Assembly: GCA_020696385.1 (NCBI GenBank)
Contig: JAEHCQ010000001.1
Coordinates: forward strand, 320,001-384,000
Length of the DNA stretch: 64,000 nucleotides
Reading direction: 5' to 3'
Origin: Methanobacteriota archaeon
GTDB lineage: Archaea; Thermoplasmatota; Thermoplasmata; SG8-5; JAGLSY01
Of the stretch, positions 1 through 58,893 are shown one piece after another. The translations under genes were made by a program, and so were the position numbers. How positions within the stretch are numbered: the stretch's first letter is position 1; each line of letters opens with the position of its first letter. A model generated the notes under the pieces. That model did no database searches, was not told where the DNA came from, and was given only the letters and a program-made list of their open reading frames with translations.

Positions 1-2283
1 GACTTCCATTTCCCTTTCCAATATCTTAAGGTCCTGTGGGTCAAGTGTGCCAGGTGTCACAGACATCAGGAATATGGAATCACTTTCTGAAACATCATCT
101 ATCAATCTTCTAAGGAATCTAAGGACAGCATCAAAACTGCTATTGCTTATGAGATATTCCAGGCCATCTATCAAAAGTATGCCTTTCTTGCCAGTATTCA
201 GAATATCCTCGATCTTGTAAATGATCCTCTCAAGTGCTGGCTGTATCGTGTCCTCCGTGCTTTCCCTGTCAGTCAACCATAATAATTCCGCTTCGCCAAA
301 ATCATAATCTCCCTTGAGGCGTCGGGGATTGGTCCTGCTTATACACATACCACCATATCCAAGGTCAAGTGTTTCGACAAATATCTCGAAACATTTTTCG
401 GGACGATCCTCCTCCACCAAATAGCTTCTGGATATCTTCAAACTCTCTGATTTGGCTGTATTATCAAAGATCTCCGCCTCCTTTTCTTTGGGCTCTTCTT
501 TGACAGGTTCTATATCTTCATCCTTCAGAACAGATTCCGCAAGGGATACGGTCGGGTTTGTGTTCATCAATTCACAATATGCTATGACCTTGTTCAGGGC
601 TCCTTCGAGGAGTCTCACATTGCTGGTGTATATCTTGGCGATGAATTTCAATACATCATCCCCGATAACAAAACCAGCAACCTCTGACTTTTGCCTCAAT
701 ATACTAACCCTGGTTTCAAGATCCGGAGCCTGCATATCAGTCACCAGGCCAGATTCAAAACGCGATACAAGTCTATCCTTTAGACCAGATATTTCTTTCA
801 ATGGGCAGTCACTGGTCATGACTATCTGCTTATCCTCCTTGTGAAGGGCATTGAAGGTATGGAACAGCTCGTCCTGAACGGCTTCCTGATCTGCAATGAA
901 TTGTATATCGTCTATCAAAAGAATGTCGAGCTTTCGATATCTGCTTCTGAAGGCCTTCATCTTATTGGATTTGGTAGCCTCGATGAATTCCTGCATGAAC
1001 TTCTCAGTGGTTATATAAAGGACCTTTCTGTCCTCATTATTACTGGCCACGTAATTCCCTATGGCATTGATCATGTGGGTCTTACCCAGGCCAACTCCAC
1101 TGCATATCAATAATGGATTGTAAACTGAAGAATCTGCTTTGGCAACAGCCAGTGAAGCTGCTTGTGAGAATCTGCTATTATCCCCGACAACGAAATTCTC
1201 AAAAGTGAATGTGGATATGAGCCCAGTATCCTTTGTCTTGAGGATATCGTCGAGCTTTCCCTTGTCTGTTTTCGCATTCTTGACAGCTCCGCATATTGGA
1301 CATTCATCAAGGCCACCCATTTCTCCACCACAGATACTGCATATATCCTCAGGTTCTCCGGCAGATGTTCTCTTCTTATTCATGACAATGGGGTCTGGCT
1401 CAGGGGTGGATTTGAATACTGGTTCTATGCTGGGAGCAGGTTTCTCAATTACTGGTTTGTCAGCAACCACAGGTTCTGCTTCCATAACCTGTTCTTTCTC
1501 TGGTTCTATGATCTCAGGTTCCACTGGATCATCCAATAGGTGTATCTTATCACTGAGATCCTCCATAGCGGCCTCTATGGCGGTTATCTTCATTGGATTC
1601 ATGAAAAGAGCCTGGAGCTTTTTCACCTCGGTCCCATGACCGATGGTGTCCATACTTTCCAGATCCCCCTTGAAAAATTCTATCTTCTTTATGTTCTCGG
1701 TGAATTCATCAAATATATGTTTCGCATCTACCATCGAGCCTTCAAGAGCATCCTGAAGGTTGTTCACGATATAACCTTCAGATTTCCATCCCTCCATTCT
1801 ATTTTGAAGGGCTTTCAATTCCTTGCTCGAACCTGTTTTCTTTGGTTCTTCATTATTGGTATCTCCCCACGAGATCCCCACTTTAGCTCGTGGTTTTTTC
1901 TTTGCAGATGGTTTCAGAACAGTGATGGAAGATTCTGGATGGGTAGAGATAAACTCATCCACCTCCAATCTACCTCTAACCTCTATCTCGCATTTATCAT
2001 CATAAGAATCCACCCAGGAAAGCTTGAGGGCCTTCTCGCCCTGCTTTGTTATTTGCAGGTCGGATCCGTCTCTTCTACCATAAACTGCTGCTGCTGGCAC
2101 TCCATTCTTGATTATCAGATATCCCTCAGATATCTGCCCATCTCTCTTCAGCATGCTCTTGACATAGCCCGTGAACTCATATTTCTTGAGCTTGATGAGA
2201 CTTTTCTTTAGAGTATCCTCTCCGCCATGGATGGTTCGGATCAACTTGCCCTCGGGCAGGAAATCATTAGACGTTAACAGCAC
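1..2283 (-). CDS. Multidomain protein: DUF2226-like + Zn ribbon + DnaA-type AAA+ ATPase (no domain IV) + DUF835; runs off the left edge
   Basis: Not in the ORF track; manually translated, open from 2292 to base 1. Motifs: FTFENFVVGDNSRF, YNPLLICSGVGLGKTH (Walker A), LLIDDIQF (Walker B), QDELFHTFNAL, RLVSRFESGL, PDLETRVSIL, SNVRLLEGAL; CSIC-x9-CPIC; C-terminal CISRTNP/LLWLT/ILLIDGLEYLI/KILEREME typical of DUF835. Start uncertain (TTG 2292, GTG 2283, ACG 2274). Confidence 0.9.
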   Translation of the reverse strand, partial: MLLTSNDFLPEGKLIRTIHGGEDTLKKSLIKLKKYEFTGYVKSMLKRDGQISEGYLIIKNGVPAAAVYGRRDGSDLQITKQGEKALKLSWVDSYDDKCEIEVRGRLEVDEFISTHPESSITVLKPSAKKKPRAKVGISWGDTNNEEPKKTGSSKELKALQNRMEGWKSEGYIVNNLQDALEGSMVDAKHIFDEFTENIKKIEFFKGDLESMDTIGHGTEVKKLQALFMNPMKITAIEAAMEDLSDKIHLLDDPVEPEIIEPEKEQVMEAEPVVADKPVIEKPAPSIEPVFKSTPEPDPIVMNKKRTSAGEPEDICSICGGEMGGLDECPICGAVKNAKTDKGKLDDILKTKDTGLISTFTFENFVVGDNSRFSQAASLAVAKADSSVYNPLLICSGVGLGKTHMINAIGNYVASNNEDRKVLYITTEKFMQEFIEATKSNKMKAFRSRYRKLDILLIDDIQFIADQEAVQDELFHTFNALHKEDKQIVMTSDCPLKEISGLKDRLVSRFESGLVTDMQAPDLETRVSILRQKSEVAGFVIGDDVLKFIAKIYTSNVRLLEGALNKVIAYCELMNTNPTVSLAESVLKDEDIEPVKEEPKEKEAEIFDNTAKSESLKISRSYLVEEDRPEKCFEIFVETLDLGYGGMCISRTNPRRLKGDYDFGEAELLWLTDRESTEDTIQPALERIIYKIEDILNTGKKGILLIDGLEYLISNSSFDAVLRFLRRLIDDVSESDSIFLMSVTPGTLDPQDLKILEREMEV

Positions 2284-2383
2284 CTCGCTCAATGTACATC
2301 ATGCTTCTTATTTAAATAATTATAATATGGATGAGCATCCATTAGACCATAAATTACTGATATCATAGCTTATTCCATCAATA

Positions 2384-3184
2384 TCAGCCATACATATGCT
2401 GTGATACATCAGACACTGCTGGAGGTCGGGTAAGAGCTGGCTGTGCTTGCTTGACAGCCTTCTTGAGCTGACTTTCGAGAAGCTCTGCTTCATCGATAAG
2501 TGGCTGAGGATCTAGTTTGATCTTTGGCAGGAAATGGTCAAGAGACACTATCAGTCGAGCCGCAGCTCTGGCATCCGGGTAATCTGAATGAGCGTCGGCC
2601 AATAGACATATGACATCTCCACCCAGTCTTTCTGCCTCATACAGCAATACACCGGAAATACCGGTTATCACACCATTTTCAAGTGGTGTGAGACTTTTCA
2701 GGCCTTTTAATATCTCACGACTGGCATTCGAACTTGCAACACCGTAGGTATTACCATCATTATTGTCAGGGACACCATCCACCGTACTGGCCTTCGTGTT
2801 CACTATGCCTTCCACAGATATGATCTGCTTGATGCCCACTTTATCGGACCATTCGATTATATTATCAACAAGGGGCTTCATTAATTCGGTAGGGGGTGGA
2901 AATTCAGATGTCAGAACGACCACCTTGCTGCAGATATTACCATCCTCACACATAGGCTTTCCAGCATATATCCTAAGAGGAGGCATTGGAATAGAGTCTG
3001 TTACTATCGCAGTTGGATAGAAATGTCTGGATGAGACAGATCCCACATAATCAAGCTTGAGGATCTTTATCAGATAATTGGAAACAATAGTGCTGACCAT
3101 TCCAACACTCGGGAAACCTTCGATCAGTACCGCACCTTTCATATCGAATTCTTTTCTATTTATGATCTTTATATCATCTTCCAA
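2384..3184 (-). CDS. PAC2-family proteasome assembly chaperone
   Basis: EGFPSVGMVSTI, PPLRIY, GISGVLL, YPDARAAA motifs; C-terminal HbYX-type tail (MYG); TTG start at 3184 after GGTGA. Confidence 0.88.
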   Translation of the reverse strand: MEDDIKIINRKEFDMKGAVLIEGFPSVGMVSTIVSNYLIKILKLDYVGSVSSRHFYPTAIVTDSIPMPPLRIYAGKPMCEDGNICSKVVVLTSEFPPPTELMKPLVDNIIEWSDKVGIKQIISVEGIVNTKASTVDGVPDNNDGNTYGVASSNASREILKGLKSLTPLENGVITGISGVLLYEAERLGGDVICLLADAHSDYPDARAAARLIVSLDHFLPKIKLDPQPLIDEAELLESQLKKAVKQAQPALTRPPAVSDVSQHMYG

Positions 3185-3331
3185 AATATCACCACGCCAG
3201 GATATTGATTTCAGATACTTAATTCTGATGACATGAAGATTATCATCATAATATGGGTCAAGCACATGAAATTAGGGATAGAAAAGATACCAATCTTTAT
3301 CTACATGATGTCAATAAGACCATGATACAGG

Positions 3332-4222
3332 ATGGTGAGTGAATTGTCCGATGTTCAGAGCCAATTACTAAGAGGAAGTTTCAAGCTAACAAGAGTGGGC
3401 GTCACAGACGTCAAGAAACCTGTGATAATAAAGAGAGATAACAAGGAAGTGATGCTAGCCGCCAGCTTCGATATTTTTGTCGATCTCCCGGCCGAATTGA
3501 AGGGGTCTCATCTTTCCAGGAATCTAGAGGTTCTCTCCCGGGTATTGGATGAGAGCGTGAGGGATCATGCTGACAGCCTGGAAATACTGGCTGCAAAGAT
3601 ATGTTCCGAGCTTCTGGTCAGGCATGAATATGCAACCTGTTCCGAGGTGAACATCACAGCGGATTATTTCATGGAAAGAGAAGTGAATGGAGGTGCCAGT
3701 AGCCTGGAATCTTATCTTCTCAAGGCAACTGCCATAAGCTTCCGAAATGGTGAATCCAACAAATCCATAGGTGTGGAGGTCATCGGTATGACAGCCTGCC
3801 CATGTGCGATGGAAGAAGTGAGAGACAGATACCTTTCTCGCTACCCGGAGAGTGAGGAATTGCTTAGAGCAATTCCAATCATCACCCATAATCAGAGAAA
3901 TATCAGTAGTCTGGAGATAGATGTTCCGGTGAACTTCGATGTTGAAGCCGAGGATCTCATAAACATCCTCGAAGATTCATTAAGTAGCCCAACCAGAGAG
4001 ATATTGAAAAGAAAGCATGAGGCTGATATTGTCGAAAAATCTCATGCCAATCCAAAATTCGTGGAAGATGTCGTTAGAGACATACTCAGCGCGGTACTGG
4101 ATAAATATCAGGATATGCCAGACAATGTGAAGATAATGGCAAAGAGTGAAAGTCAGGAATCCATACACAAGCACAATGCATTTGCCGAAAGGGTCACAAC
4201 ATTGGGAGAGCTCAAAGCATGA
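3332..4222 (+). CDS. mptA: GTP cyclohydrolase MptA (FolE2 family)
   Basis: KGSHLSR, GMTACPCA, THNQR, NPKFVEDVVR, ESIHKHNA motifs. Confidence 0.93.
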   Translation: MVSELSDVQSQLLRGSFKLTRVGVTDVKKPVIIKRDNKEVMLAASFDIFVDLPAELKGSHLSRNLEVLSRVLDESVRDHADSLEILAAKICSELLVRHEYATCSEVNITADYFMEREVNGGASSLESYLLKATAISFRNGESNKSIGVEVIGMTACPCAMEEVRDRYLSRYPESEELLRAIPIITHNQRNISSLEIDVPVNFDVEAEDLINILEDSLSSPTREILKRKHEADIVEKSHANPKFVEDVVRDILSAVLDKYQDMPDNVKIMAKSESQESIHKHNAFAERVTTLGELKA

Positions 4223-4398: not shown

Positions 4399-4893
4399 CT
4401 AATCTGAGAGAAGTTCCATTGCTTCTTTCTCATCCATGTTCAGAGCTTTTAACATGTATGTCAAAGATTTCTTCTTTATCATACGTGTCGTGGTCTCATC
4501 AAGGAACTTTTCCATGGCGATCGGAGCCCTTGTGAAATAGCCCATTGCGAACTCGGAGAAATACAGGCCAGCATTTTCCTCATCTATCTCAGTGGCCTTG
4601 TTATAATATTCCTCGGCCTCATTGAAGCGTCCCATATCATTGCAGAAAGATGCGAGAGAAGTGACATAATAAACCTCTTCAGGGTCCAGCTCAGCAGCTT
4701 TCAGGTAGAGTTCCTGTATCTCCTCGGGCTTCACCTTGTGTACTCCCAGAGAAGCTTCAGCCTTACCGAAGTAAGCCCTTGCATTCTTCGGATCTTTTTT
4801 AATGATGTCATTGAACTTCTTTCTGGCTTTTTCATGTTCAAATTCCGCTAGTAGTATGTCCGCTTTGACCAGTTCGTCTTCAATGGTTGCCAT
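4399..4893 (-). CDS. Tetratricopeptide repeat protein
   Basis: TPR-like helices (ARAYFGKAEA, GRFNEAEEYYNKATEID); GGAG SD. Confidence 0.85.
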   Translation of the reverse strand: MATIEDELVKADILLAEFEHEKARKKFNDIIKKDPKNARAYFGKAEASLGVHKVKPEEIQELYLKAAELDPEEVYYVTSLASFCNDMGRFNEAEEYYNKATEIDEENAGLYFSEFAMGYFTRAPIAMEKFLDETTTRMIKKKSLTYMLKALNMDEKEAMELLSD

Positions 4894-5129
4894 GATATAT
4901 CTCCATTGTTATATTGACAGGGCATTTAAAAAAGATTTTGGGATAGCTTTATAATCTAATACTTTAAATTGTCATAATGAGCTTGTGTGCCCAGGTTGCG
5001 CATGACCATGTTTTTCATCAAATATTCTATCAGTATATTGTCCACTGCCAGACATCGATTGTCTCGTATGTCAATTGCCGATTTTCAATAGCAATTTGAA
5101 TTATCTCACTTAAATCCGAATTATCCGAT

Positions 5130-8100
5130 TCAATATTCGGGAGGTATGACCTCTTCAGGTGAGACCGGAGGAGCTCCCTCTGGAGACATAGGAGGTGCAT
5201 CCTCAGGTGGCATTGAAGTACCATCTGCAGGCTGAGCGACGAATGCCGGCGGTGGTGGAGGAGGTGGTTGTTGGTACTGTTGCTGTGGTGGCTGATTGTT
5301 CTTTTTCACTATTATGACGATGATCAATAAGATGACCATTGCCAGAATTATCAACAATATCCACCACCAGTTCGAAGCACCATTATCGACATCGAGTTCG
5401 ATGGGATCCAGATCATTGGTCTGGCCATCTGAGACCGTGACAGGAATGGTGGTATCGTAATCTCCCTTAGATACCAGAAGATCATGGGTACCAACAGGAA
5501 CATCTAGCAGCTCGAACTCACCATTTTCATCGGTGATCTGTGAATATGTATCGCCATCCACTACGACCTGTACTAGGGCTCCCTCGATAGGGGTGCCATC
5601 AGCATCAATGATCTGGCCTCCGATATCGCCAGTTGGTGGAATGGGTTCATCTTCGGTGGTAAAAGCCCCGATCATATCATTATCCATCTTGTTACCTATC
5701 AGATCTCTGACCGCGCCCTCGAACATCACATTGTATTCCGTACCATAGGACAGCGAGTGATCTGGTGTGAAAGCGACCCTTGAGCCATCGGCATCCCAGA
5801 TGAAGGTTCCTGTGATCGTGTCATCCTCGACAAATACTTCACCATTTTTCCTGTATATCCTCATGCCAGCTTCCACACTGTCACGATCCATTTCTTCATT
5901 GAAAGTGAATGCGATATCGGTATCGACCGAAATATCATCTCCGGATGGAGCTATGGTGACCATGGGGGACTTGGTATCCCAGATCAGAGTGAATTCATCA
6001 TAAGCACTGTTACCCGCAAGGTCAAAGACAGTTAGCCTAATGACAAAGGTACCATCTATGTCGGATCTTATCGTGGTCTTATTATCATCATTAGATCCGA
6101 AATCGATATGATTGGCAAAGCCACTTTCTGTTGTCCAGGAATAGTAATCGATCCCACTGCCATGTTCTATGACCGTACTGAATTGTGTGAACTGCTTGTT
6201 CTCGGTCCTATTGGGTCCTATGTCGATAAATGGGATAACAGTATCCCAAACAAGTATGAAGGAATCAGTGGCATTGTTCCCTTCGAAATCATAGGCCAAG
6301 AAACTTATCTCGTATGTACCATCGATATCAGCTTCCATCTGGGTATACATATTATATGGATCCCAAAAGCTGATGGAACCAGGACCAGATACCTGTGCCC
6401 ATTCATATCCATCAACACCAGATTCTGTATCAATGGCTACACCATATTGTGTAAAAGCCGAGCTCTCCCATCTGTCAGGACCAGCTTCAACATCAGGTGG
6501 TGTCGAGTCCGGGACAAAGGTTGTGAAACTCCATGTATGAGTTGGAGGTGAATTTCCATAGATATTTGTGCCCCCACTTACCCGCATGCCGATCGTCTCG
6601 GCATATGTCCAATCACTGTGGGTCCAGGTAGCAGTATCAGACACTACATTGGTGGTGGACCAGCCCGAGAATGACCAGCCACCTGGATCAGTACCTGAGG
6701 TCTGTACCAATGCAGGATTCGAACCTGTGTTCATAGTCCCATCATATACGACACTGACACTCTGGTCAATAGCAATTCCAGCGGAGCCGCTAGCTGGGGT
6801 AGTGGATATCACCTCTGGAATTGGATGTCCAACATAGACATCGTCAATATGCCAGTAATCCATACCAGCACCGCTACCACCAGTCTGTGAGAATCTGAGT
6901 TGGAAAGATGAGTGTATGGCATCAGCAGAAAGGAGATAAGTACGATCATACGTCGCCCCCTCGGATGCTCCACCGAAGAATGTCTCCAGCCATACCCATG
7001 TTCCAATATCATTCATATAATACAGTTCAAGGTCTTCGCCGCCATCGGGGTTCTCACTGAAAATACCACTGCCTTCCTGTATCCAACATTCTACTTCCAC
7101 TATTGAAAGGCCGGATGTGTCAATGAACCAGGAATCCACATTTACCAATCCACCTGACGTGTACATTGACCATGATCCAGAGTTCGAGATCTGGGTTCCA
7201 ACTCCTGAGAATGTGGGATTATCCGATGTCCAGTTCAAACCAGTGCTACCACCGAATACACCGAACTCAAAGTCATCAAGCCATGGAGCTGTGAAAAATA
7301 CGTCTGTGGTTATCTGTGCCGTATCCAATCTCATGGAATCATTCTGAGAGATAATAGTTATGAGAGAAGTGTTTGAATCACCTGGAATCGCACCCCCTGG
7401 AATAGTAACACGGACAATTACCTGGACTGATGCATTGACCGGTACCATGACATTGGATATGTCCATGGTATCTGCCGCGTTCCTGAGAGTCACTGGCCAT
7501 GTACTTCCAGATACTGAAAGATTGTATGTGTCATTTAATAATCCAGTATTTGTGATCGTTATAGTGTAATCCAATACGCCACCTGCCGAAGATGCGTCAG
7601 TTTGGTAACTGGGGGATACATCCAATCGGTATGGTGGTGTGACATTACCATTGAGAAGCCAGTATATGATATCATCCAGAAGCACAGCCCTATCACCTGT
7701 GCTATCATCAACAGCAGTCAGATCAAAGGCCGTGTATACCACCCTGTAAGTTCCTGTATCCGCCCTGGTCGCGATATTTGCAGTGGATGTGGTAGTGAAT
7801 ATTGTATGACCATCATTTATAGGATCATTATCTGTCCTGTATGCCCATATACCTGGATTGACAGTACCTTGATCCCCAAGGTATGTGTCATTATCCGTGA
7901 TGATGTCTCCTGGAACACCATTTATAGTGAAAGGGGAAGCTGTGTTTCCCTCAAAAGCAAGGTAATTCGAATGCAGATAGGTATTGTACCAGGGTGTCCA
8001 CGTAGCTCCATTAACAGAATCATAACCTGCCAGACAACTGGATAAATACAATTTACCACCAGCATCCAGATATGTTCCGATATTGGCTCTATCGGTCGGA

Positions 8101-9659
8101 CTGAAAGTTCCGTCATTTGGGGATACCGCACTATCATCATAGGAATTACCTGTTGCCCAGATAATTATCTCATAGACGAGTAAGTCAGCCGCAGATGGAA
8201 CTCCATCGACCGCGTATTCCCACACATCGTAGGAATAACCTGTCGAATCCAATGCAGCCATTATCTCGACCTCCGTATTTAGGCTAGTGATCGCACCACC
8301 ATCATCATCCACATACAGTATCATTCCAGGAACAATCGTCATGATCATTTCCATATCAGATATAGTACTGTTACCCTGAGAAGTGGCTGTTATATTGGCA
8401 TAGTCTATATCTCCTTTAGCTGCCGCGCCCGGTATGTTCACGCGAGCGATGAATTGTGAATTATTACCAGCAGATATGGAAATAGTGGTTATATTTATTG
8501 TATCGCCGGCATCGCGGAATATCACTGGCCATGAATTATTCTGCGCAGATAGATCATAGGTATCATTGCTCGACCCATTGTTCCATATTATGAATCCATA
8601 ATCTGCAGAGGCACCAGGACTTTCCCGTTGAATGGTTGATGTAACCGGAGTCATATCGAAATCATAAGGAGGCAATGCCTGTGTCTGTATCTGGACCATA
8701 TCAGAATCAGTAGTATTACCCTGTGATGTGGCTGTTATGAACGCTGCATCCACTTGCCAGGACGTAGCTCCACCTGGGATGCTCACACGGGCAATGAAGC
8801 TGCCAGTGCTTCCATTTGTTATAAAAATATTAGATATATTAGTGGTGTCGCCAATGTCCCTGAATATTACAGGCCATGCGTTTCCACCTACTGAAAGATT
8901 ATAAGTGTCATTGCTTGTGCCGATATTATCGATGCTGAGAATATGATCCACATCTGATCCTGGACCACCGGCAGCACTTTGGAGATCGGGGTATAGATCC
9001 AAGGAAAAGGCAGGAGGTGGCCCTACATATACATCGTCTATATGCCAGTAATCAAAACTTCCCCCACTTCCACCTGTTTGGTAGAATCTTATTTGGAAAT
9101 TTGAATGGCAGGCATCTAATGGCAATATATGATCCACATTATAGACAGTACCAGGAGCGTCCACATTGCCAAAGAAAGTATCCAGCAAGACCCATGAAGA
9201 TACATTGTTAAGATAATATATTTCAATATTCTCGGTAAGTGTATCTGGAGCTTCGCTTCCCCCAAAGGCCCCTCCTTTACGAATGTAGCAGCTGAATGAG
9301 ATGTTGAGATAGGCACTCGTATCTATACTGGAAGAATTCAATGTAACTGTTCCACCCTGTGTGTACATGGAGTAAATGCCTGACTGGGATGTTGATGTAT
9401 CCACACCATAAGTTCCTGTGCCAAGTACACCGGTCCAGTTGAACCCCGTACTTCCACCGAAGTTACCGGTTTCAAAATCATCCAGCCAAGGAATAGGAAA
9501 AGCCATAGGGGATCCGGCATTACCATTGTCTTGAGAAATCGTATTGCCTGAATATCCCGCCATGATAGGTCCCGCGCTCATGAGGAGCAATAACCCTACC
9601 AGTAGAACCGAAATCATTCCCCTAACTTGCCCACTTTTCATATTATCGAATGAACTCAT
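5130..9659 (-). CDS. Large membrane-anchored surface protein (two Reelin/MAM-like beta-sandwich repeats, NEW3-like Ig repeats, SbsA/Big_5-like and carboxypeptidase-regulatory-like domains)
   Basis: 1509 aa; signal peptide; duplicated PWLDDFExGxFGGSTG...DYWHIDDVYVG unit; three IxNxGxxNDTYxLS repeats; C-terminal TM then Gln/Pro-rich tail. Confidence 0.85.
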   Translation of the reverse strand: MSSFDNMKSGQVRGMISVLLVGLLLLMSAGPIMAGYSGNTISQDNGNAGSPMAFPIPWLDDFETGNFGGSTGFNWTGVLGTGTYGVDTSTSQSGIYSMYTQGGTVTLNSSSIDTSAYLNISFSCYIRKGGAFGGSEAPDTLTENIEIYYLNNVSSWVLLDTFFGNVDAPGTVYNVDHILPLDACHSNFQIRFYQTGGSGGSFDYWHIDDVYVGPPPAFSLDLYPDLQSAAGGPGSDVDHILSIDNIGTSNDTYNLSVGGNAWPVIFRDIGDTTNISNIFITNGSTGSFIARVSIPGGATSWQVDAAFITATSQGNTTDSDMVQIQTQALPPYDFDMTPVTSTIQRESPGASADYGFIIWNNGSSNDTYDLSAQNNSWPVIFRDAGDTINITTISISAGNNSQFIARVNIPGAAAKGDIDYANITATSQGNSTISDMEMIMTIVPGMILYVDDDGGAITSLNTEVEIMAALDSTGYSYDVWEYAVDGVPSAADLLVYEIIIWATGNSYDDSAVSPNDGTFSPTDRANIGTYLDAGGKLYLSSCLAGYDSVNGATWTPWYNTYLHSNYLAFEGNTASPFTINGVPGDIITDNDTYLGDQGTVNPGIWAYRTDNDPINDGHTIFTTTSTANIATRADTGTYRVVYTAFDLTAVDDSTGDRAVLLDDIIYWLLNGNVTPPYRLDVSPSYQTDASSAGGVLDYTITITNTGLLNDTYNLSVSGSTWPVTLRNAADTMDISNVMVPVNASVQVIVRVTIPGGAIPGDSNTSLITIISQNDSMRLDTAQITTDVFFTAPWLDDFEFGVFGGSTGLNWTSDNPTFSGVGTQISNSGSWSMYTSGGLVNVDSWFIDTSGLSIVEVECWIQEGSGIFSENPDGGEDLELYYMNDIGTWVWLETFFGGASEGATYDRTYLLSADAIHSSFQLRFSQTGGSGAGMDYWHIDDVYVGHPIPEVISTTPASGSAGIAIDQSVSVVYDGTMNTGSNPALVQTSGTDPGGWSFSGWSTTNVVSDTATWTHSDWTYAETIGMRVSGGTNIYGNSPPTHTWSFTTFVPDSTPPDVEAGPDRWESSAFTQYGVAIDTESGVDGYEWAQVSGPGSISFWDPYNMYTQMEADIDGTYEISFLAYDFEGNNATDSFILVWDTVIPFIDIGPNRTENKQFTQFSTVIEHGSGIDYYSWTTESGFANHIDFGSNDDNKTTIRSDIDGTFVIRLTVFDLAGNSAYDEFTLIWDTKSPMVTIAPSGDDISVDTDIAFTFNEEMDRDSVEAGMRIYRKNGEVFVEDDTITGTFIWDADGSRVAFTPDHSLSYGTEYNVMFEGAVRDLIGNKMDNDMIGAFTTEDEPIPPTGDIGGQIIDADGTPIEGALVQVVVDGDTYSQITDENGEFELLDVPVGTHDLLVSKGDYDTTIPVTVSDGQTNDLDPIELDVDNGASNWWWILLIILAMVILLIIVIIVKKNNQPPQQQYQQPPPPPPPAFVAQPADGTSMPPEDAPPMSPEGAPPVSPEEVIPPEY

Positions 9660-9740
9660 CTGTATCTCTCCATTATGGATATATCTTGATTGGTATCGTT
9701 GACTATATAATTGACTACTTATTTAAAAAATCGTACAAGA

Positions 9741-10241
9741 TCATTCCTGGTAAAAAGTAATGGTCTTCACATCACTAACTGTTTTGATCTTCTCTATGAT
9801 CTTCGCTGGGATCGGAGTATCGGTTATGATATAGAGCAAGCCAGCAGAAGTAGCAGGGCATTGTGCCTGTCTAATAGAAATACCGCCTTCGCCGATTATG
9901 CTGGTGATCTCACCCATGGTCCCTGGCTTTCCAGTATAACAGATATCCAATCCAATAACACCCCAACCCATGTTCAGAGCCATATTGGCAAGATTACATG
10001 TAGGACTCAATTTAGAATATATCTCGTACAATCGTGGATTGTCATTGATGGTCTTGACAGTGGATGTCACCACTCTCTTGTCCTTATCAAGCGCGGTGGC
10101 CAACTGAGAATGTGACATGGCGACCTTGTCGAAATATAATTTCATCTTATCGACCTTTATGCCAGTTTCCAGCATGTACTTTGCCACAATAGCCTGCGAT
10201 GGCAAGCGGGAAAATTCATCCTCTATCTTTCTCCACATCAT
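9741..10241 (-). CDS. ACT-domain regulator of amino-acid metabolism (COG2150-like)
   Basis: MWRKIEDEF...DKRVVTSTVKTI, GISIRQA, LYIITDTPIP pattern of this archaeal family. Confidence 0.8.
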   Translation of the reverse strand: MMWRKIEDEFSRLPSQAIVAKYMLETGIKVDKMKLYFDKVAMSHSQLATALDKDKRVVTSTVKTINDNPRLYEIYSKLSPTCNLANMALNMGWGVIGLDICYTGKPGTMGEITSIIGEGGISIRQAQCPATSAGLLYIITDTPIPAKIIEKIKTVSDVKTITFYQE

Positions 10242-54219: not shown

Positions 54220-54292
54220 GGCCGGGACCGAGAATTGAACCCGGGACGGGGGCTCCACAGGCCCCTAGGATAACCACTACCCCACCCCGGCC
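54220..54292 (-). tRNA. tRNA-His (GUG), encoded G-1, no CCA
   Basis: Acceptor GCCGGGG/UCCCGGC, D-arm, anticodon arm GGGGC-CUGUGGA-GCCCC, T-loop GGUUCAAUUC. Confidence 0.95.
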
Positions 54293-54452
54293 ATACTGTG
54301 CGATTGATTACTTATTGTGGGAACGTGGAAGACCTACAAACATGACATTATATAAAAATTTAGCAGGATACATATCCAAAATGAGTATTTATTGGATTCA
54401 ATTTAATATTAGGGAGCTATCATTTATATCGGTAAAGTGCATTTCCTCCAGT

Positions 54453-55478
54453 ATGGTAGAAGGGGAAGGGCCAATTCCCATAATATCAGCCAGTGATCTG
54501 GAAAAATATGGATACTGTCCATTGAGCTGGTGGTTGAGCATTGGCCTGTCGAATGATAACGAGGAAGATAAAAAAAGAGTTCTGGCAACAGGCACAGAGA
54601 AGCACAAGAGCCTGAGCAAGGACCTCAATAGTATCCTGGAGGGCGAGAGCATGGCGAAGGAATCCGAGACAACGGTCCTATGGTTCGCCATAGCGGCCAC
54701 TCTGATATGCCTGGTGGGACTTTCTCTGGTATTCAAGGCAGACCTTAATATTGGACTTATAATGGGCGTGATCGCCCTTATATGGATCCTGGCGGCATGC
54801 TATTTCCTTTATCTCGCAGAGACCATATCACAGAAAAAGACCAAGATGATCTATCAGAGGATCATTCTCATCTTCGCCATTGTGGGGGCCATAATAGGCG
54901 TGAATTCCCTCACAGTTCTGGAGCGATATTTCAGCCCGGAAGGAGCTGAGATCTTACTTGCACTTTCTCTTGTCTGGCTAATTGCCGCTTCTTATTTCCT
55001 GTACAGATCGCTAAAACATGTGCACGGAGCCATGAAAAAGAGACATCTGAGGAAGGTGAAGGAACAGATAGCGTATGTGGATACTGATGATAAAAAACCG
55101 AAATTATTCATATCCAAGAAACTTGGGTTGAGTGGCAGGCCAGACTATGTACTTCTGATCGATGATGGGCATATACCTGTCGAGGTCAAGACCGGTCGCA
55201 CACCACGCGGTCCGCTTTTCTCCCACATAATGCAAACAGCGGCCTACTGTATCCTGATAGATGAGGAATATGGCGAGGCTCCTCCTTATGGTATCCTGAG
55301 ATATGAAACAGCCGAGCACGAGATAGAGTATGATGATTCTCTCAAGGATCTGGTCATAACAAAACTTGAAGAGATGAGGAATATATTTATATCAAAGGAA
55401 GTGCACAGGAATCACAATAAGCCAGGCAAATGCAGGAATTGTTCAAGAAGAGCAATATGCCAGGAAAGGTTGGATTAG
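54453..55478 (+). CDS. Solo Cas4-like PD-(D/E)xK nuclease with four TM helices inserted
   Basis: ISASDLEKYGYCP...4 TM...LSGRPDY, PVEVKTG, QTAAY, KCRNCSRRAIC; ATG 54453 about 25 nt after a TTTATATC TATA box. Confidence 0.85.
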   Translation: MVEGEGPIPIISASDLEKYGYCPLSWWLSIGLSNDNEEDKKRVLATGTEKHKSLSKDLNSILEGESMAKESETTVLWFAIAATLICLVGLSLVFKADLNIGLIMGVIALIWILAACYFLYLAETISQKKTKMIYQRIILIFAIVGAIIGVNSLTVLERYFSPEGAEILLALSLVWLIAASYFLYRSLKHVHGAMKKRHLRKVKEQIAYVDTDDKKPKLFISKKLGLSGRPDYVLLIDDGHIPVEVKTGRTPRGPLFSHIMQTAAYCILIDEEYGEAPPYGILRYETAEHEIEYDDSLKDLVITKLEEMRNIFISKEVHRNHNKPGKCRNCSRRAICQERLD

Positions 55479-55583: not shown

Positions 55584-55925
55584 CTATTTGATGTCCTGTT
55601 CATAATTGAGACCGCTGAGAAGAGCGATTTCCGCCTTTTGGATCTCCCTTCCAAGGTAGGCCGCATGCTCCATTCTTGAGACCAGATTCTCTCTGACTAT
55701 GGTATGACAAAGAGCTTCAGCATTCCTTCCACATACCGTGGCCATGAGCTTTCCAGTATCGGTCTTCTTGGAATCCTTACCCTTGGAGACATTCTCATAG
55801 AACTCGACAACTATCTCCTTTCTTGATTTATCTATGAATATTACAAAGAATCCTTTTGGATCCAGTGTCAGGCGCACATCCTTCTCTGCTTCTATTGGCT
55901 CTATGTCCATATTGAGGTCCTCCAT
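55584..55925 (-). CDS. DUF4346 domain protein
   Basis: LDPKGFFVI, VSRMEHAAYLGREIQKAEIAL..YEQD; TAATG overlap with the upstream gene. Confidence 0.88.
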   Translation of the reverse strand: MEDLNMDIEPIEAEKDVRLTLDPKGFFVIFIDKSRKEIVVEFYENVSKGKDSKKTDTGKLMATVCGRNAEALCHTIVRENLVSRMEHAAYLGREIQKAEIALLSGLNYEQDIK

Positions 55926-56896
55926 TATTCCAGCTCCTTTTCCACTTGATCTCTGGCCTCGACCATGTTTTTCAGTTTCTGGCAGGCGACCTTTTGATCA
56001 AGGTTCCTCAATCCGCAATCAGGATCGAGTAAGAGCTTGTCCTCACTAAATAGGTCGAGCCCCTTTAAAATCCTTTCTTTGATTTTATTGACAGGCTCTG
56101 CTTCGTTCACATCGGATCGAACACATCCAAATCCCAGCTTCTGAGGGAAATCAAATCCAGCCACAAAATTATCCAATCCAGTATGCGCCGCGAACTCATG
56201 ATCAAGAATATCAACCTTGATCTCAATGAGGTCTTCGAACAGGGGCTGGATGTCACCACATACATGAAGGGCTTTGTACACATTCGTGTTCTTCAGAATT
56301 ATCTCGACCAGGTCCTTGCCGTATTCAGGCCGATCTATCGAGAAGAAGGGCTCGTCCACCTGTATGACATCGACGATGTCCGAGATGGCTTCCACTTCTT
56401 TTGAAAAAGCCTCCGCGATATCAAAGGCCAGGTTTTCCACATTCCCATAATGCTCATCCACGCAGGAGCGTGCCATCGTATACGCTCCAGTTATGATGCC
56501 CTTGATCTTCACATTGTCTCCAATAAGACCTCTCGCATACAGGAGATCGTCTTTGGTTATCGGGGAATTGAATGATATATCGCCAATGACCACTGGCCGA
56601 GTCTTCATCCTTATTCCATTCAGCTTCGAGGCGAAGAGAGTGACCATGTCATTCCGGGTCTGTCCATCCGATATGATGTCTATGCCAGCATCCAGCTGGG
56701 CCTGTACAGATCGTTCTAAACTTATTTTGAATGGATCTGGATCAATAGATGTATCCAGATCATTGGGTGATCCTTTCATAGATGTGATACGCCCCACATC
56801 AATGTTGTATGACCTTTCGAAATCCCGACCCAGAGGTCTGGCCGGGAAGCTTCCGACGACCGTGGTCGTCAATCTACGTCCGCTCACTTCACTCAC
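55925..56896 (-). CDS. Core (single-barrel, methylcorrinoid-dependent) methionine synthase, MesA-like
   Basis: TTVVGSFP, QLDAGIDIISDGQTR, QVDEP, Zn ligands HVC...E...PDCGL; GTG start 56896 overlapping the mtrH stop (GTGA). Confidence 0.88.
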   Translation of the reverse strand: MSEVSGRRLTTTVVGSFPARPLGRDFERSYNIDVGRITSMKGSPNDLDTSIDPDPFKISLERSVQAQLDAGIDIISDGQTRNDMVTLFASKLNGIRMKTRPVVIGDISFNSPITKDDLLYARGLIGDNVKIKGIITGAYTMARSCVDEHYGNVENLAFDIAEAFSKEVEAISDIVDVIQVDEPFFSIDRPEYGKDLVEIILKNTNVYKALHVCGDIQPLFEDLIEIKVDILDHEFAAHTGLDNFVAGFDFPQKLGFGCVRSDVNEAEPVNKIKERILKGLDLFSEDKLLLDPDCGLRNLDQKVACQKLKNMVEARDQVEKELE

Positions 56897-57822
56897 TTCA
56901 ATCTCCTCTTTGGATGGTTCTCGGGGATCTCGATGCCGAAATAATCCTCTCCGCCTTCCGCGATGAACTTGTCCACCATAGCGATGAAGGGGAATATCTG
57001 GCCAGCATTCCTCATCGGGCCATATACACAATAGTCAGCCCCCATCATAACGGGGAGAGCATTCGCTCCGACATCGCAAGTCAAGTATGCCTCGCGATGT
57101 GTCTTTCTGTAATCTTTCATCCAGAGCCATGATTCCACGGTGTTATGGATCGCGCATCCTGCTGGCAATCCCCACTTGTTCTTCATCACGGGGATCGACC
57201 TGATGGTCTCCGCAGTATTATGGTCAAAAGGAGTTGCTCCAGTATCGATTATCATGTTTGGGATATTGGCTTCCTTCGCAATATCCAGAAGGCCTTGATC
57301 CAAAAGGCCAGCACCATTTTCCAGTATCTCCATCCTGCCATCGGTGCTCATGTTCTTCGGATTGTAGCCCAGCACGATGGCACAACCTGGTGGGTTCGCT
57401 GCCAGTGCTTCTTTCTCCATCTCTTCCAATCCCAGATTCAGTGAATTGTAGATAAGCCTCTTTGAGACTCCGATCTCTCCAGCATGGTCCAGTACCTTCG
57501 CCCGTAGTTCGCTTTCAGGAACATCCACGCATATCGGTCTGTTCTCCGGAACCCGGTCAAGAACAAAGCTCAATCGGGTCTCTATCTGCTCCTCCGACCC
57601 GATGAATATATCGCATATTCCTGGATTGCCAGTCATTTGACTTAGCTCTTCCTGGGTGGCGATAAAGCCATCTATTTCCTCCATGGCTTCCGGTGAATGA
57701 TCTATGTATTTCTTTCCGTAAAATACGGTCCCGAACAGTACGGTGGGCGATTCCCCAGGTTGTCCGCCCATGCTCATATCGCCTATTTTTATCTTAATTT
57801 GCTCTTTTGAAAAGTTCAACAT
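56893..57822 (-). CDS. mtrH: Methyl-tetrahydropterin:corrinoid methyltransferase MtrH/MtxH
   Basis: GGQPGESPTVLFGTVFY, IYNSLN, KWGLPAGCAIHN, GADYCVYGP; ATG 57822 after GGAGGAG. Confidence 0.9.
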   Translation of the reverse strand: MLNFSKEQIKIKIGDMSMGGQPGESPTVLFGTVFYGKKYIDHSPEAMEEIDGFIATQEELSQMTGNPGICDIFIGSEEQIETRLSFVLDRVPENRPICVDVPESELRAKVLDHAGEIGVSKRLIYNSLNLGLEEMEKEALAANPPGCAIVLGYNPKNMSTDGRMEILENGAGLLDQGLLDIAKEANIPNMIIDTGATPFDHNTAETIRSIPVMKNKWGLPAGCAIHNTVESWLWMKDYRKTHREAYLTCDVGANALPVMMGADYCVYGPMRNAGQIFPFIAMVDKFIAEGGEDYFGIEIPENHPKRRLK

Positions 57823-57823
57823 A

Positions 57824-58411
57824 TTAACTCTCCTCCACAGGCATTTGCTCAAGCTCGAGGAAGGGATCCAGTATCAGGTCCTTGTGGAATCCTATCTTGC
57901 CAGTTAATCGCTTTACAGACGGTCTGTCGCCATTCTTATTGTCCACAAGCTCCACGATATAAGGCTCACCAAATGGCTCATGATCGATCGCCAGTTGTTC
58001 CTCCACGACCTTCATGATCTCGACCTTATCGGTTATGTCGATCATATTGACGATCTCTATCTGCTGGCGAAAGCGTTCGATCGCCTCTTCATCAATGTTC
58101 TCGATGAAGGGAACCGCGCCCTTCGCGCCAGATATCCTTCCATTGTCATCAATACCCTTGCTGTGAAGTGATAGAAGGCTGTGGCCAGACCTATGGCCGC
58201 GTACTTCTTCACCACAGAGTATTAGAATTCGAATATTCGGATTGGAGATGACATTCGCCACAACCTTCTCAATACCCAGGTTCTCGGTCTTCATGTGACC
58301 CCATATCGCGACTTTCTCTTCGGGAAAGTCAATGATACTGGCCAGTGTGACTATCGAAACTGAACTATTGGGATTTCCAATTGTGTATTCTCCTCTCCAT
58401 GGGTACATCAT
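57824..58411 (-). CDS. mtrA: Soluble MtrA/MtxA-like corrinoid protein
   Basis: GEYTIGNPNSSV, KTENLGIEKVVANVISNPNIR, CGEEVRGHRSG (Co-ligand His), GAVPFIEN; no C-terminal TM anchor. Confidence 0.9.
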   Translation of the reverse strand: MMYPWRGEYTIGNPNSSVSIVTLASIIDFPEEKVAIWGHMKTENLGIEKVVANVISNPNIRILILCGEEVRGHRSGHSLLSLHSKGIDDNGRISGAKGAVPFIENIDEEAIERFRQQIEIVNMIDITDKVEIMKVVEEQLAIDHEPFGEPYIVELVDNKNGDRPSVKRLTGKIGFHKDLILDPFLELEQMPVEES

Positions 58412-58594
58412 GTTCTCACCGATCGATGATCGTACGGATCATCCCGGGATTATGAGTTTCTACACTTAAAGATATTTGCTGAGATTTAATCAGATCATGG
58501 TAAGGATGACTCGGTAATTATCAGCAGGAATTTAGTAAATATCAAAGGAGAATTTAAGGAAAATTATTTATTCAATAATAGATTGACCAGGCCT

Positions 58595-58662
58595 GTGTGA
58601 AGGGGCAAAATTATACCCTTCGGGGTACTATTTTAACTCTTCTTCCCACACCCCCTTCACAC
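58595..58662 (+). ncRNA. Candidate structured small RNA with a C(UUCG)G tetraloop
   Basis: GTGTGAAGGGG/CCCCTTCACAC 11-bp stem enclosing AAAAT-TA-TACCC-TTCG-GGGTA-CT-ATTTT; T-run at 58680-58685. Confidence 0.4.
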
Positions 58663-58789
58663 TCCTTAATATGAGTTAGTTTTTTACATTGTAAAAATAT
58701 ATTACTAAAAAGTAGGTTAATTTGATTAAATTCCTTCAAAATTGAACGTTCAAGGCGAAACACTTAAGCCTTGAATGAATAATATAATT

Positions 58790-58863
58790 GTTGGCAAGAC
58801 TGGAAGAAAGTGTTATTATCCTTCCACTTCTCTCGACTCTTTCTCCATTCTAGTCTTGCCAAC
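58790..58863. repeat. Long inverted repeat (terminator or sRNA)
   Basis: GTTGGCAAGACT (58790-58801)/AGTCTTGCCAAC (58852-58863), extendable by GGAA/TTCT and GAAAG/CTTTC; 30 nt past the TPR gene stop. Confidence 0.6.
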
Positions 58864-58893
58864 CCATTTCTCAAAATTGGTAATCCATGATAG

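Follow-up and report, generated by a model that had tools for sequence, protein, structure and literature searches.

A conserved mtrA-mtrH-mesA-like-DUF4346 operon in Thermoplasmata as a probable soluble, modular corrinoid-dependent methionine synthase

Background

What do MtrA and MtrH, two subunits of the methanogen methyl-tetrahydromethanopterin (methyl-H4MPT):coenzyme M (CoM) methyltransferase, do in an archaeon in which no methanogenesis genes were found? This question is raised by a stretch of 64,000 nucleotides (contig JAEHCQ010000001.1, positions 320,001 to 384,000, assembly GCA_020696385.1; hereafter "the window") from a Thermoplasmata metagenome-assembled genome (MAG), in which mtrA and mtrH stand in a row with a gene for a single-barrel member of the MetE family and a gene for a DUF4346 protein. 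Zinke et al., in the available text of their preprint, list mtrAH in the SG8-5 lineage as "unknown function", and Adam et al. (2022) describe the role of MtrAH outside methanogens as unclear in the sections that treat it. In a 2024 survey of Methanomassiliicoccales, mtrA and mtrH are read, in the passages that mention them, as genes for methyl-CoM formation (PMC10804542).

A different role is suggested by work on methionine synthases. The available text of Price et al. (2021) defines MesA, a core synthase described there only from methanogens, and predicts MtrA as its methyl donor (PMC7857596). In vitro, MesA is reported to use methylcobalamin (PMC7857596 and PMC11378808, relevant sections), and Price and Arkin (2024) note a co-occurrence of MesA and MtrA, with the genes adjacent in a few genomes (PMC11378808, as far as its available text goes). 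Here we report that the four genes form a conserved operon, and we consider it probable that they encode a soluble multi-subunit corrinoid-dependent methionine synthase, in which a methyl group would pass from methyl-tetrahydrofolate (methyl-THF) via MtrH to the MtrA corrinoid and via the MesA-like enzyme to methionine.

Results and Discussion

The four open reading frames (ORFs) lie on the minus strand at 55584-58411 in the order mtrA, mtrH, mesA-like and DUF4346, with gene starts chosen to match homologues. The mtrA-like gene (57827-58411, stop codon at 57824-57826) encodes a putative soluble corrinoid carrier of 195 aa (PF04208); mtrH (56896-57822, or 56893-57822 with its stop codon; ATG start) encodes a predicted methyl-pterin:corrinoid methyltransferase of 309 aa (PF02007); the mesA-like gene (55928-56896, or 55925-56896 with its stop codon; GTG start) encodes a predicted single-barrel (core) Zn methionine synthase of 323 aa (PF01717); and the last gene (55587-55925, or 55584-55925 with its stop codon; ATG start) encodes a putative accessory protein of 113 aa (PF14251, the Pfam family PterinBD-DUF4346). 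Read directly in the sequence, mtrA and mtrH are separated by a single nucleotide (TAA-t-ATG), the GTG start of the mesA-like gene overlaps the mtrH stop codon as GTGA, and the ATG of the DUF4346 gene overlaps the mesA-like stop codon as TAATG. A sequence-only reading of this DNA had described four tightly coupled genes, and all three junctions were found exactly as given there. An A+T-rich gap of 482 bp (58412-58893) between mtrA and an upstream gene for a TPR protein is presumed to hold the operon promoter; at the gathering score, no riboswitch or other Rfam family was found in this leader, the sole Rfam match of the window being a tRNA gene (54220-54291, minus strand). On the 3' side the operon is bounded by a convergent Cas4-like gene.

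The MtrA-like protein matched PF04208 over profile positions 12-171 of 173 (1.4e-54) and scored 183 with TIGR01111, the full-length equivalog, which is below the cut-off of 249.15. It also aligned with the solved cytoplasmic MtrA domains 5laa (1.4e-45), 5l8x and 8q3v (range 1e-40 to 1e-45). In these alignments H73 falls in a GH motif that matches the GH of the MtrA chains 5laa and 8q3v, the histidine of which we take to be the cobalt ligand His84. Among 23 homologues, G72, H73 and P150 were invariant and H176 nearly so; judged by alignment, the histidine lower ligand of cobalt is thus retained as H73. The C-terminal membrane anchor is missing: the protein ends at 195 aa, whereas full-length MtrA chains in the PDB have 238-240 aa, and the highest mean Kyte-Doolittle hydropathy in 19-residue windows was 1.18 across all four operon proteins. 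Where canonical MtrA has a linker and a membrane helix, the soluble homologues share a conserved C-terminal tail (57827-57961, i.e., the C-terminal 45 residues) with the consensus LHKDLxVDPY (L-H-K/S-D/S-L-x-V-D/T-P-Y/W), which includes the nearly invariant H176; this tail may represent a docking peptide. A quick, unrooted tree of MtrA domains (142 rows, 157 columns) kept the sequences of the operon, of methanogens and of the fusions largely apart, a result that supports no statement on ancestry.

MtrH matched PF02007 (1.4e-77) and, over profile positions 1-313 of 314, scored 279.5 bits with TIGR01114, the equivalog for the methanogen H4MPT-type enzyme (cut-off 271.4). With the model for MtgA, the THF-type member of the family, it scored 146 (E = 1.5e-42), below the cut-off of 550. 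The MesA-like protein matched PF01717 (Meth_synt_2; 5.3e-41) without Meth_synt_1, the N-terminal domain of MetE, and the MetE-type Zn/homocysteine motifs, i.e., H211-x-C213, E234 and C294, were invariant among 20 homologues. The sequence-only reading had named an MtrA with its cobalt-ligand histidine and no membrane anchor, an MtrH, and a single-barrel Zn methionine synthase; all three assignments were borne out, by the GH motif and the hydropathy values, by a near full-length match above the TIGR01114 cut-off, and by the single PF01717 domain with its invariant Zn motifs, respectively.

The best NCBIfam model of the MesA-like protein was NF002119 (PRK00957), which describes methanogen MesA, with 273.9 bits against a cut-off of 258. 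Scores with this model were 472 bits for Methanocaldococcus, 395 for Methanobacterium and 337 for a Methanomicrobiales MAG, while the window protein and its operon-type relatives scored 254-296 bits, around the cut-off, several of them at 254-258. In a tree of 90 sequences (quick maximum-likelihood search, LG+G4), the core (single-barrel) synthases were set apart from the C-terminal halves of MetE with a Shimodaira-Hasegawa-like approximate likelihood ratio test (SH-aLRT) support of 100, and the operon-linked proteins formed a clade of 74 rows (SH-aLRT 94) beside an 11-row group (98) with methanogen MesA, Nitrospinota proteins and two other Thermoplasmata core synthases. By this tree the operon synthase would be a MesA-like sister subfamily rather than a nested member. 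The sequence-only reading had suggested a placement among MesA, MesB and MesC; of this, the grouping with core synthases next to methanogen MesA was obtained, with the family compared with NCBIfam models and methanogen MesA in a tree that holds no named MesB or MesC references.

Two observations on synthase genes elsewhere are recorded here. In one related MAG, matches to the MesA-like gene fall in two overlapping frames (L024:5013-5492 and 5353-5904), which could reflect a frameshift, an assembly error or a pseudogene. In a Nitrospinota MAG, a stand-alone Pterin_bind gene (PF00809, 301 bits; L027:1678-2565) precedes the gene for a MesA-like core synthase (2572-3531) by 7 nt, with no corrinoid protein seen in the locus; the pair may represent another modular methyl-pterin-dependent core methionine synthase.

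The arrangement is conserved. Among 25 loci found with the MesA-like protein, 17 carried all four genes in the same order and three more were cut by contig ends but consistent with it; the five loci without MtrAH were three from Nitrospinota, one from Haladaptatiplasma and one with MesA and DUF4346 only. A second set comprised the best 80 of 528 relatives from a profile search: 54 loci carried all four genes (14 of these with a gene for methylenetetrahydrofolate reductase [MTHFR] as well), eight carried MtrH, MesA and DUF4346, seven MtrA, MtrH and MesA, two MesA and DUF4346, and nine MesA alone. Six of the nine MesA-alone loci were from methanogens (Methanocaldococcus, Methanobacterium, Methanomicrobiales and a MAG labelled only Methanobacteriota), and no MtrA, MtrH or DUF4346 was found within 4 kb of these six. 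The closest public contigs belonged to MAGs of Thermoplasmata that are relatives of the methanogenic Methanomassiliicoccales but fall outside that group; their labels included SG8-5 Proteinoplasmatales, UBA147 and UBA280. Labels of operon-bearing contigs (as deposited) also included Altiarchaeota, Undinarchaeota, Aenigmatarchaeota and "Nanoarchaeota". Recurring in 17 of 25 and 54 of 80 loci, down to approx. 35% identity, the arrangement is far beyond chance.

We also analyzed a sample of 151 genomes of the class (one flagged unpublished, G098, and lacking the operon). MtrA was matched in 38 genomes, in 35 of them with at least 159 bits; the matches in the other three were longer, fusion-type ORFs. 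All of the 35 high-scoring genomes had a MesA-like gene (34 at 227 bits or more, one cut by a contig end), and in 33 of them mtrA and the mesA-like gene lay on one contig within approx. 3.3 kb. Of the 151 genomes, 17 had McrA and one had PF02574 (the MetH/BHMT-type homocysteine domain), and the 35 operon genomes were not among them; neither MtrE nor Mch was found in any of the 151. The sequence-only reading had proposed operon conservation as a check, and this came out in its favour; its suggestion that mtrAH here would not indicate methanogenesis is supported.

Pfam searches of the loci further showed that in 14 of the 35 operon genomes a divergent gene of the MTHFR family (PF02219, 98-119 bits) lies directly upstream of mtrA, giving the order MTHFR-mtrA-mtrH-mesA-DUF4346 (e.g., L040:4190-5146, L041:4014-4943 and L037:5305-6258, all on the minus strand, L038:755-1711 and L044:922-1893). 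The maker of methyl-pterin would thereby be placed in the same transcription unit as its proposed consumers. A match to MTHFR somewhere in the genome was found in 30 of the 35. Locus L038 also carries an ORF with an ACT domain between mesA and DUF4346 and, on the opposite strand between mtrH and mesA, a response regulator and a HATPase fragment. Within the family to which the window genome belongs, G097 (83% complete) was the only sampled member without MtrA, and its MesA-like match is a 41-aa fragment (C43:8740-8859), which may reflect loss or an assembly gap.

The window's own genome (2.28 Mb in 50 contigs, 94.5% complete) contains a single match each for MtrA, MtrH, PF01717 and PF14251, all in this operon. 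Searches of this genome found no McrA, no MtrE, no CdhD or corrinoid iron-sulfur protein (CoFeSP), no Mer, no Mch and no PF02574, and the MetH domains PF02310, PF00809 and PF02574 were absent from the operon proteins. The sequence-only reading had reported no mtrBCDEFG nearby; this now extends to the whole genome for MtrE, and no other Mtr family was found among the scanned ORFs of the window, without separate searches with the individual models for MtrB, C, D, F and G. Its proposed checks for mcr, metH and metE likewise turned up no McrA, no PF02574 and no second gene of the MetE family. FolD and S-adenosylhomocysteine (SAH) hydrolase were both found, and a MetF/MTHFR gene (L129:5914-6828, minus strand) lies directly upstream, on the same strand of contig C44, of the archaeal S-adenosylmethionine (SAM) synthetase gene (L129:4566-5873, minus strand). 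With SAH hydrolase, SAM synthetase, MetF and FolD, the genome thus has a homocysteine-producing methyl cycle and a route to methyl-THF, and this needs a methionine synthase; the MesA-like gene of the operon is the only candidate for this step in the assembled genome.

Other corrinoid proteins were considered as donors. The genome gave three B12-binding matches, and MetH architecture was seen in none of them: a 143-aa ORF is by its size probably the small subunit of a mutase, a 581-aa ORF may encode a B12-binding radical-SAM protein, and the third match is a protein of 214 aa. The 214-aa protein, on contig C22, was rejected as it is unlinked to the operon and lies beside an ABC transporter; CoFeSP was rejected as CdhD was not found.

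Overall, gene content, coupling, conservation and co-occurrence, in a genome in which neither another methionine synthase nor methanogenesis genes were found, point to the following scheme, in which we infer which way the methyl group travels, which pterin and which thiol are used, and how the proteins touch each other. MtrH would transfer a methyl group from a methyl-pterin, most likely 5-methyl-THF made by MetF, to the Co(I) corrinoid carried by MtrA in its anchor-less form. From methyl-Co(III)-MtrA, the MesA-like single-barrel Zn enzyme would then pass it to homocysteine, yielding methionine. DUF4346 would be a fourth conserved subunit, tied to the corrinoid domain of soluble MtrA-type proteins; it might serve as a cap, in docking or in pterin binding. 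Together these steps would give a cycle like that of MetH, with components that share no homology with MetH domains. This route is the one that the sequence-only reading had put forward, and at the genomic level the conserved operon and the failure to find McrA, MtrE, PF02574 or a second MetE support it.

The proposed system shares features with several known ones. As in methanogens, the synthase is a single-barrel Zn enzyme of the MetE family with MtrA as the predicted corrinoid donor, but here neither Mcr nor a membrane Mtr was detected in the host, the synthase falls in its own clade, and a soluble MtrA shares its operon with MtrH, DUF4346 and, in relatives, MTHFR. The operon also goes beyond the methanogen-only range of the 2021 description of MesA, as McrA was found neither in the own genome nor in the 35 operon genomes. 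As in the methanogen MtrA-H complex, MtrH would load the MtrA corrinoid from a methyl-pterin, and the GH motifs align; unlike in that complex, no MtrE and no anchor were found, the acceptor enzyme is predicted to be a homocysteine methylase and sodium pumping is not expected. The isolated MtrH and corrinoid protein of Ca. Methanomethylicus, a corrinoid protein that we take to be of the PF02310 type and not an MtrA, form another comparable pair. According to the available text of Loh et al. (2021), this pair is co-localized with a metE homologue and an anabolic role is raised as a possibility, while no linkage to DUF4346 or MTHFR is described there (PMC7886697). The split MetH of Phaeobacter and Ruegeria (MtgCDE type) is an experimentally known three-part cobalamin-dependent methionine synthase that also has separate pterin-, corrinoid- and homocysteine-binding proteins (PMC12478193, relevant sections); its parts, however, are PF00809, PF02310 and PF02574, whereas those here are PF02007, PF04208 and PF01717. 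Finally, Core-MetE/MesB, which works with the Wood-Ljungdahl CoFeSP, is likewise a core MetE that receives its methyl group from a corrinoid and not from folate (PMC7005905 and PMC7857596, in the parts that treat it), but here CdhD/CoFeSP was not found and the linked corrinoid protein is an MtrA.

Several points weigh against the proposed methionine synthase. No reductive activator was detected: RACo was not found in the own genome and the operon has no MetH activation domain. The absences reported above are absences from a MAG assembly that is 94.5% complete, the direction of transfer is not readable from sequence, and the support is genomic. The score of the MesA-like protein only just exceeds the family cut-off (273.9 vs. 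258, with 337-472 for methanogen members), and as its clade lies apart from characterized methanogen MesA, the thiol substrate could differ. Judged by sequence alone, MtrH looks more like an H4MPT enzyme (279.5 vs. a cut-off of 271.4, compared to 146 vs. 550 for MtgA). In two genomes (G015 and G093) the cluster is split, with MTHFR-MtrA-MtrH and MesA-DUF4346 on different contigs, and five of the 35 operon genomes, three of them less than 80% complete, lack a match to MTHFR.

If the methyl group flowed the other way, the operon would serve catabolism: the MesA-like enzyme would demethylate a sulfur compound (a methylthiol, a sulfonium compound or methionine) and charge MtrA with the methyl group, MtrH would pass it to tetrahydrofolate, and MTHFR and FolD would oxidize it, in a demethylation like that by MtgB/MtgC/MtgA. 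The MtrH family does include MtgA, which works in the corrinoid-to-THF direction (PMC12478193, relevant sections) and the model of which matches the window MtrH (1.5e-42), but the nearest characterized relative of the acceptor enzyme, MesA, methylates homocysteine (PMC7857596, relevant sections). Linkage to MTHFR is compatible with either direction, and the label Proteinoplasmatales of the relatives suggests, by name only, a protein-degrading lifestyle; in the own genome, however, MetF is paired with SAM synthetase, which is an anabolic context, and the MesA-like gene is the only candidate methionine synthase of a genome with SAM synthetase and SAH hydrolase. Moreover, energetics disfavour the transfer of a methyl group to Co(I) from a simple thioether. 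We thus judge the reverse direction unlikely.

The identity of the pterin is a separate issue, as the methionine synthase mechanism would be unchanged if the donor were methyl-H4MPT or another archaeal pterin, as in methanogen Mtr. MtrH scores above the TIGR01114 equivalog cut-off, and the window encodes a type IB GTP cyclohydrolase (FolE2/MptA family, PF02649, 6.5e-69; 3332-4222, plus strand), an enzyme for the first step of pterin synthesis. Nevertheless, no Mer was found in the own genome and Mch was found in none of the 151 class genomes, whereas the own genome encodes MetF and FolD, and relatives carry MTHFR in the operon (14 of the 35 sampled genomes). In addition, no second PF14251 match was found in the own genome, which therefore lacks the C-terminal domain that is carried by the DHPS-like model TIGR00284. 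Because of the presence of MetF and FolD, the failure to find Mer, Mch and a second PF14251, and the operon linkage of MTHFR, methyl-THF is strongly favoured over H4MPT within the methionine synthase reading, and a donor other than methyl-THF appears distinctly unlikely. The methyl-pterin step of the sequence-only reading, which had left both pterins open, is thus kept and narrowed towards tetrahydrofolate.

Comparison with an McrA-positive relative (G103) provides the strongest comparative argument for the role of the MesA-like enzyme. In this genome (locus L036, C2:75500-87000), MtrA (264 aa) and MtrH stand not beside MesA but beside RACo, CobW and two URO-D/MtaA-like genes (ORFs of the locus at 2043-2837, 2839-3723, 4566-6215 on the minus strand, 6108-7043, 7547-8599 and 8681-9802). 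From its gene content this cluster looks like a soluble methyl-pterin:CoM methyltransferase cluster, i.e., a counterpart of the MesA operon, and it is arranged as expected from the methyl-pterin:CoM system that Speth and Orphan proposed for MtrAH (as cited in the available text of Zinke et al.). The same MtrAH loader is thus found with two thiol-methylating modules, which argues for the MesA-like enzyme as the acceptor-side partner. That the MesA operon itself encodes a methyl-pterin:CoM (or other cofactor thiol) methyltransferase tied to methane or alkane metabolism, as mtrAH have been read in Methanomassiliicoccales-related genomes (Zinke et al., available text, citing Speth and Orphan 2018; H2/CO2 methanogenesis is speculated on in the relevant passages of PMC10804542) and as the G103 cluster could suggest, is highly improbable, since no operon genome (0 of 35) has a match to McrA and no class genome (0 of 151) one to MtrE, and since the partner here is a MetE-family enzyme with homocysteine/Zn motifs, not an URO-D/MtaA enzyme.

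The fourth protein of the putative methionine synthase matched PF14251 over its full length (profile positions 1-86 of 86; 3e-27, 95.7 bits vs. a gathering score of 29.6) and also the C-terminal part of NF002128, a model of a 390-aa MtrA fusion. Its AlphaFold2 model, which was confident (predicted local distance difference test of 85), has three strands and then two helices. No relative was found by a sequence search of the PDB (E ≤ 1) or by a Foldseek search of the model against the PDB (E ≤ 0.001); the best VIA-align wide result (Z = 6.3) was within the stated background of 7-8, and the best Atlas features score (0.77) was below the lead threshold. The invariant polar residues D22, E41, Y43, T75, H87, E94, E99 and Q110 suggest that the domain holds a binding site and does not simply act as a spacer.

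A profile search with DUF4346 among longer proteins gave 1,734 matches, and all 120 of the best listed carried both PF14251 and PF04208. As these 120 longer homologues are all MtrA-DUF4346 fusions, DUF4346 belongs with the MtrA-type domain, and its status as an accessory subunit, which the sequence-only reading had offered tentatively, gains weight. One such fusion was found in a class genome (G130). Where the operon is split, DUF4346 remains beside MesA (L043, L066 and L093), and methanogen MesA occurs without DUF4346. Bridging or capping by DUF4346 at the hand-over from MtrA to MesA would fit both the fusion to MtrA and the adjacency to MesA. Complex prediction for MtrA, the MesA-like protein and DUF4346 gave scores of 0.40-0.43, compared to 0.28 for a control with MesA replaced and 0.00-0.01 for controls with the partner replaced; we regard this as evidence neither way.

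MtrA-DUF4346 fusions also occur in bacteria, i.e., Chryseobacterium (L161:4623-5807), Dechloromonas (L179:4704-5846), Dethiobacter (L145:5016-5813), Paenibacillus (L155:4422-5825) and Sedimentibacter (L190:5028-5804), with no MtrH or MesA nearby; neighbours of these genes include ArsR-family regulators, heavy-metal P-type ATPases, MerT/HMA, and thioredoxin or a MEDS histidine kinase. In an Aenigmatarchaeota-labelled MAG, a fusion gene (L133:4914-5768) is followed by a weak thymidylate-synthase-like gene (6037-6888), and in an "uncultured archaeon" MAG a fusion (L135:4956-6020) is followed by a weak thymidylate-synthase-like gene (6100-6951) and a dCTP deaminase gene (7419-7985). A wider reading, which we consider doubtful, is that soluble MtrA-type corrinoid proteins have in DUF4346 a dedicated partner that takes the place of the membrane complex, whether as a cap, as an escort or as a reactivation module; the fused pair, taken to number over 1,700 proteins, would then be a widespread, unrecognized class of corrinoid methyl-carriers, many of them in aerobic bacteria, and the Thermoplasmata operon the first context in which this pair has a defined job. 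A bolder corollary of the same doubtful reading would be that, of the two forms of Mtr, the soluble anabolic MtrAH-MesA system predates the sodium pump.

Two further features of the window lie outside the operon. The Cas4-like gene at its 3' side (54315-55478, plus strand), just upstream of which stands the tRNA gene mentioned above, encodes a PD-(D/E)XK nuclease (TIGR00372, 1.6e-23) with a long hydrophobic N-terminal half. At the start of the window, an ORF of 764 aa (1-2292, minus strand) that runs off the window edge combines a bacterial-type DnaA ATPase domain (PF00308, 2.8e-61), which is unusual in an archaeon, with a C-terminal DUF835.

Conclusions

A modular corrinoid-dependent methionine synthase is well supported here at the genomic level and was partly anticipated. 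That MesA takes its methyl group from MtrA, as the sequence-only reading had also assumed, is supported by our data and had already been predicted by Price et al. (2021), with some adjacency of the genes reported by Price and Arkin (2024), both as far as their available texts go; added here are the operon, its spread in non-methanogens, and MTHFR and DUF4346 as members. Full-text literature searches returned nothing on the mtrA-mtrH-mesA-DUF4346 operon, on its spread in non-methanogens or on the form extended by MTHFR, although supplements that lay outside this search (Price 2021 Table S1, the MtrH tree of Zinke et al. and Fig. S4 of Loh et al.) may show the neighbourhood; searches with DUF4346 or PterinBD found no paper.

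MtrA as the physiological donor of MesA-type core synthases is so far a prediction, and the operon offers a compact, fully soluble four-protein system for this prediction, without a membrane complex. It also provides a first functional handle on DUF4346, and it points to module swapping, in which one MtrAH loader would serve MtaA-like enzymes in a methanogen and a MetE-type barrel here. For annotation, the consequence is a correction: mtrA and mtrH in Thermoplasmata and Methanomassiliicoccales-related genomes have been read as genes of unknown function, as genes for methyl-CoM formation or as a hint of H2/CO2 methanogenesis, but in all 35 sampled operon genomes their company is methionine synthesis genes, without Mcr in any of them, and they should not be taken as evidence of methane production.

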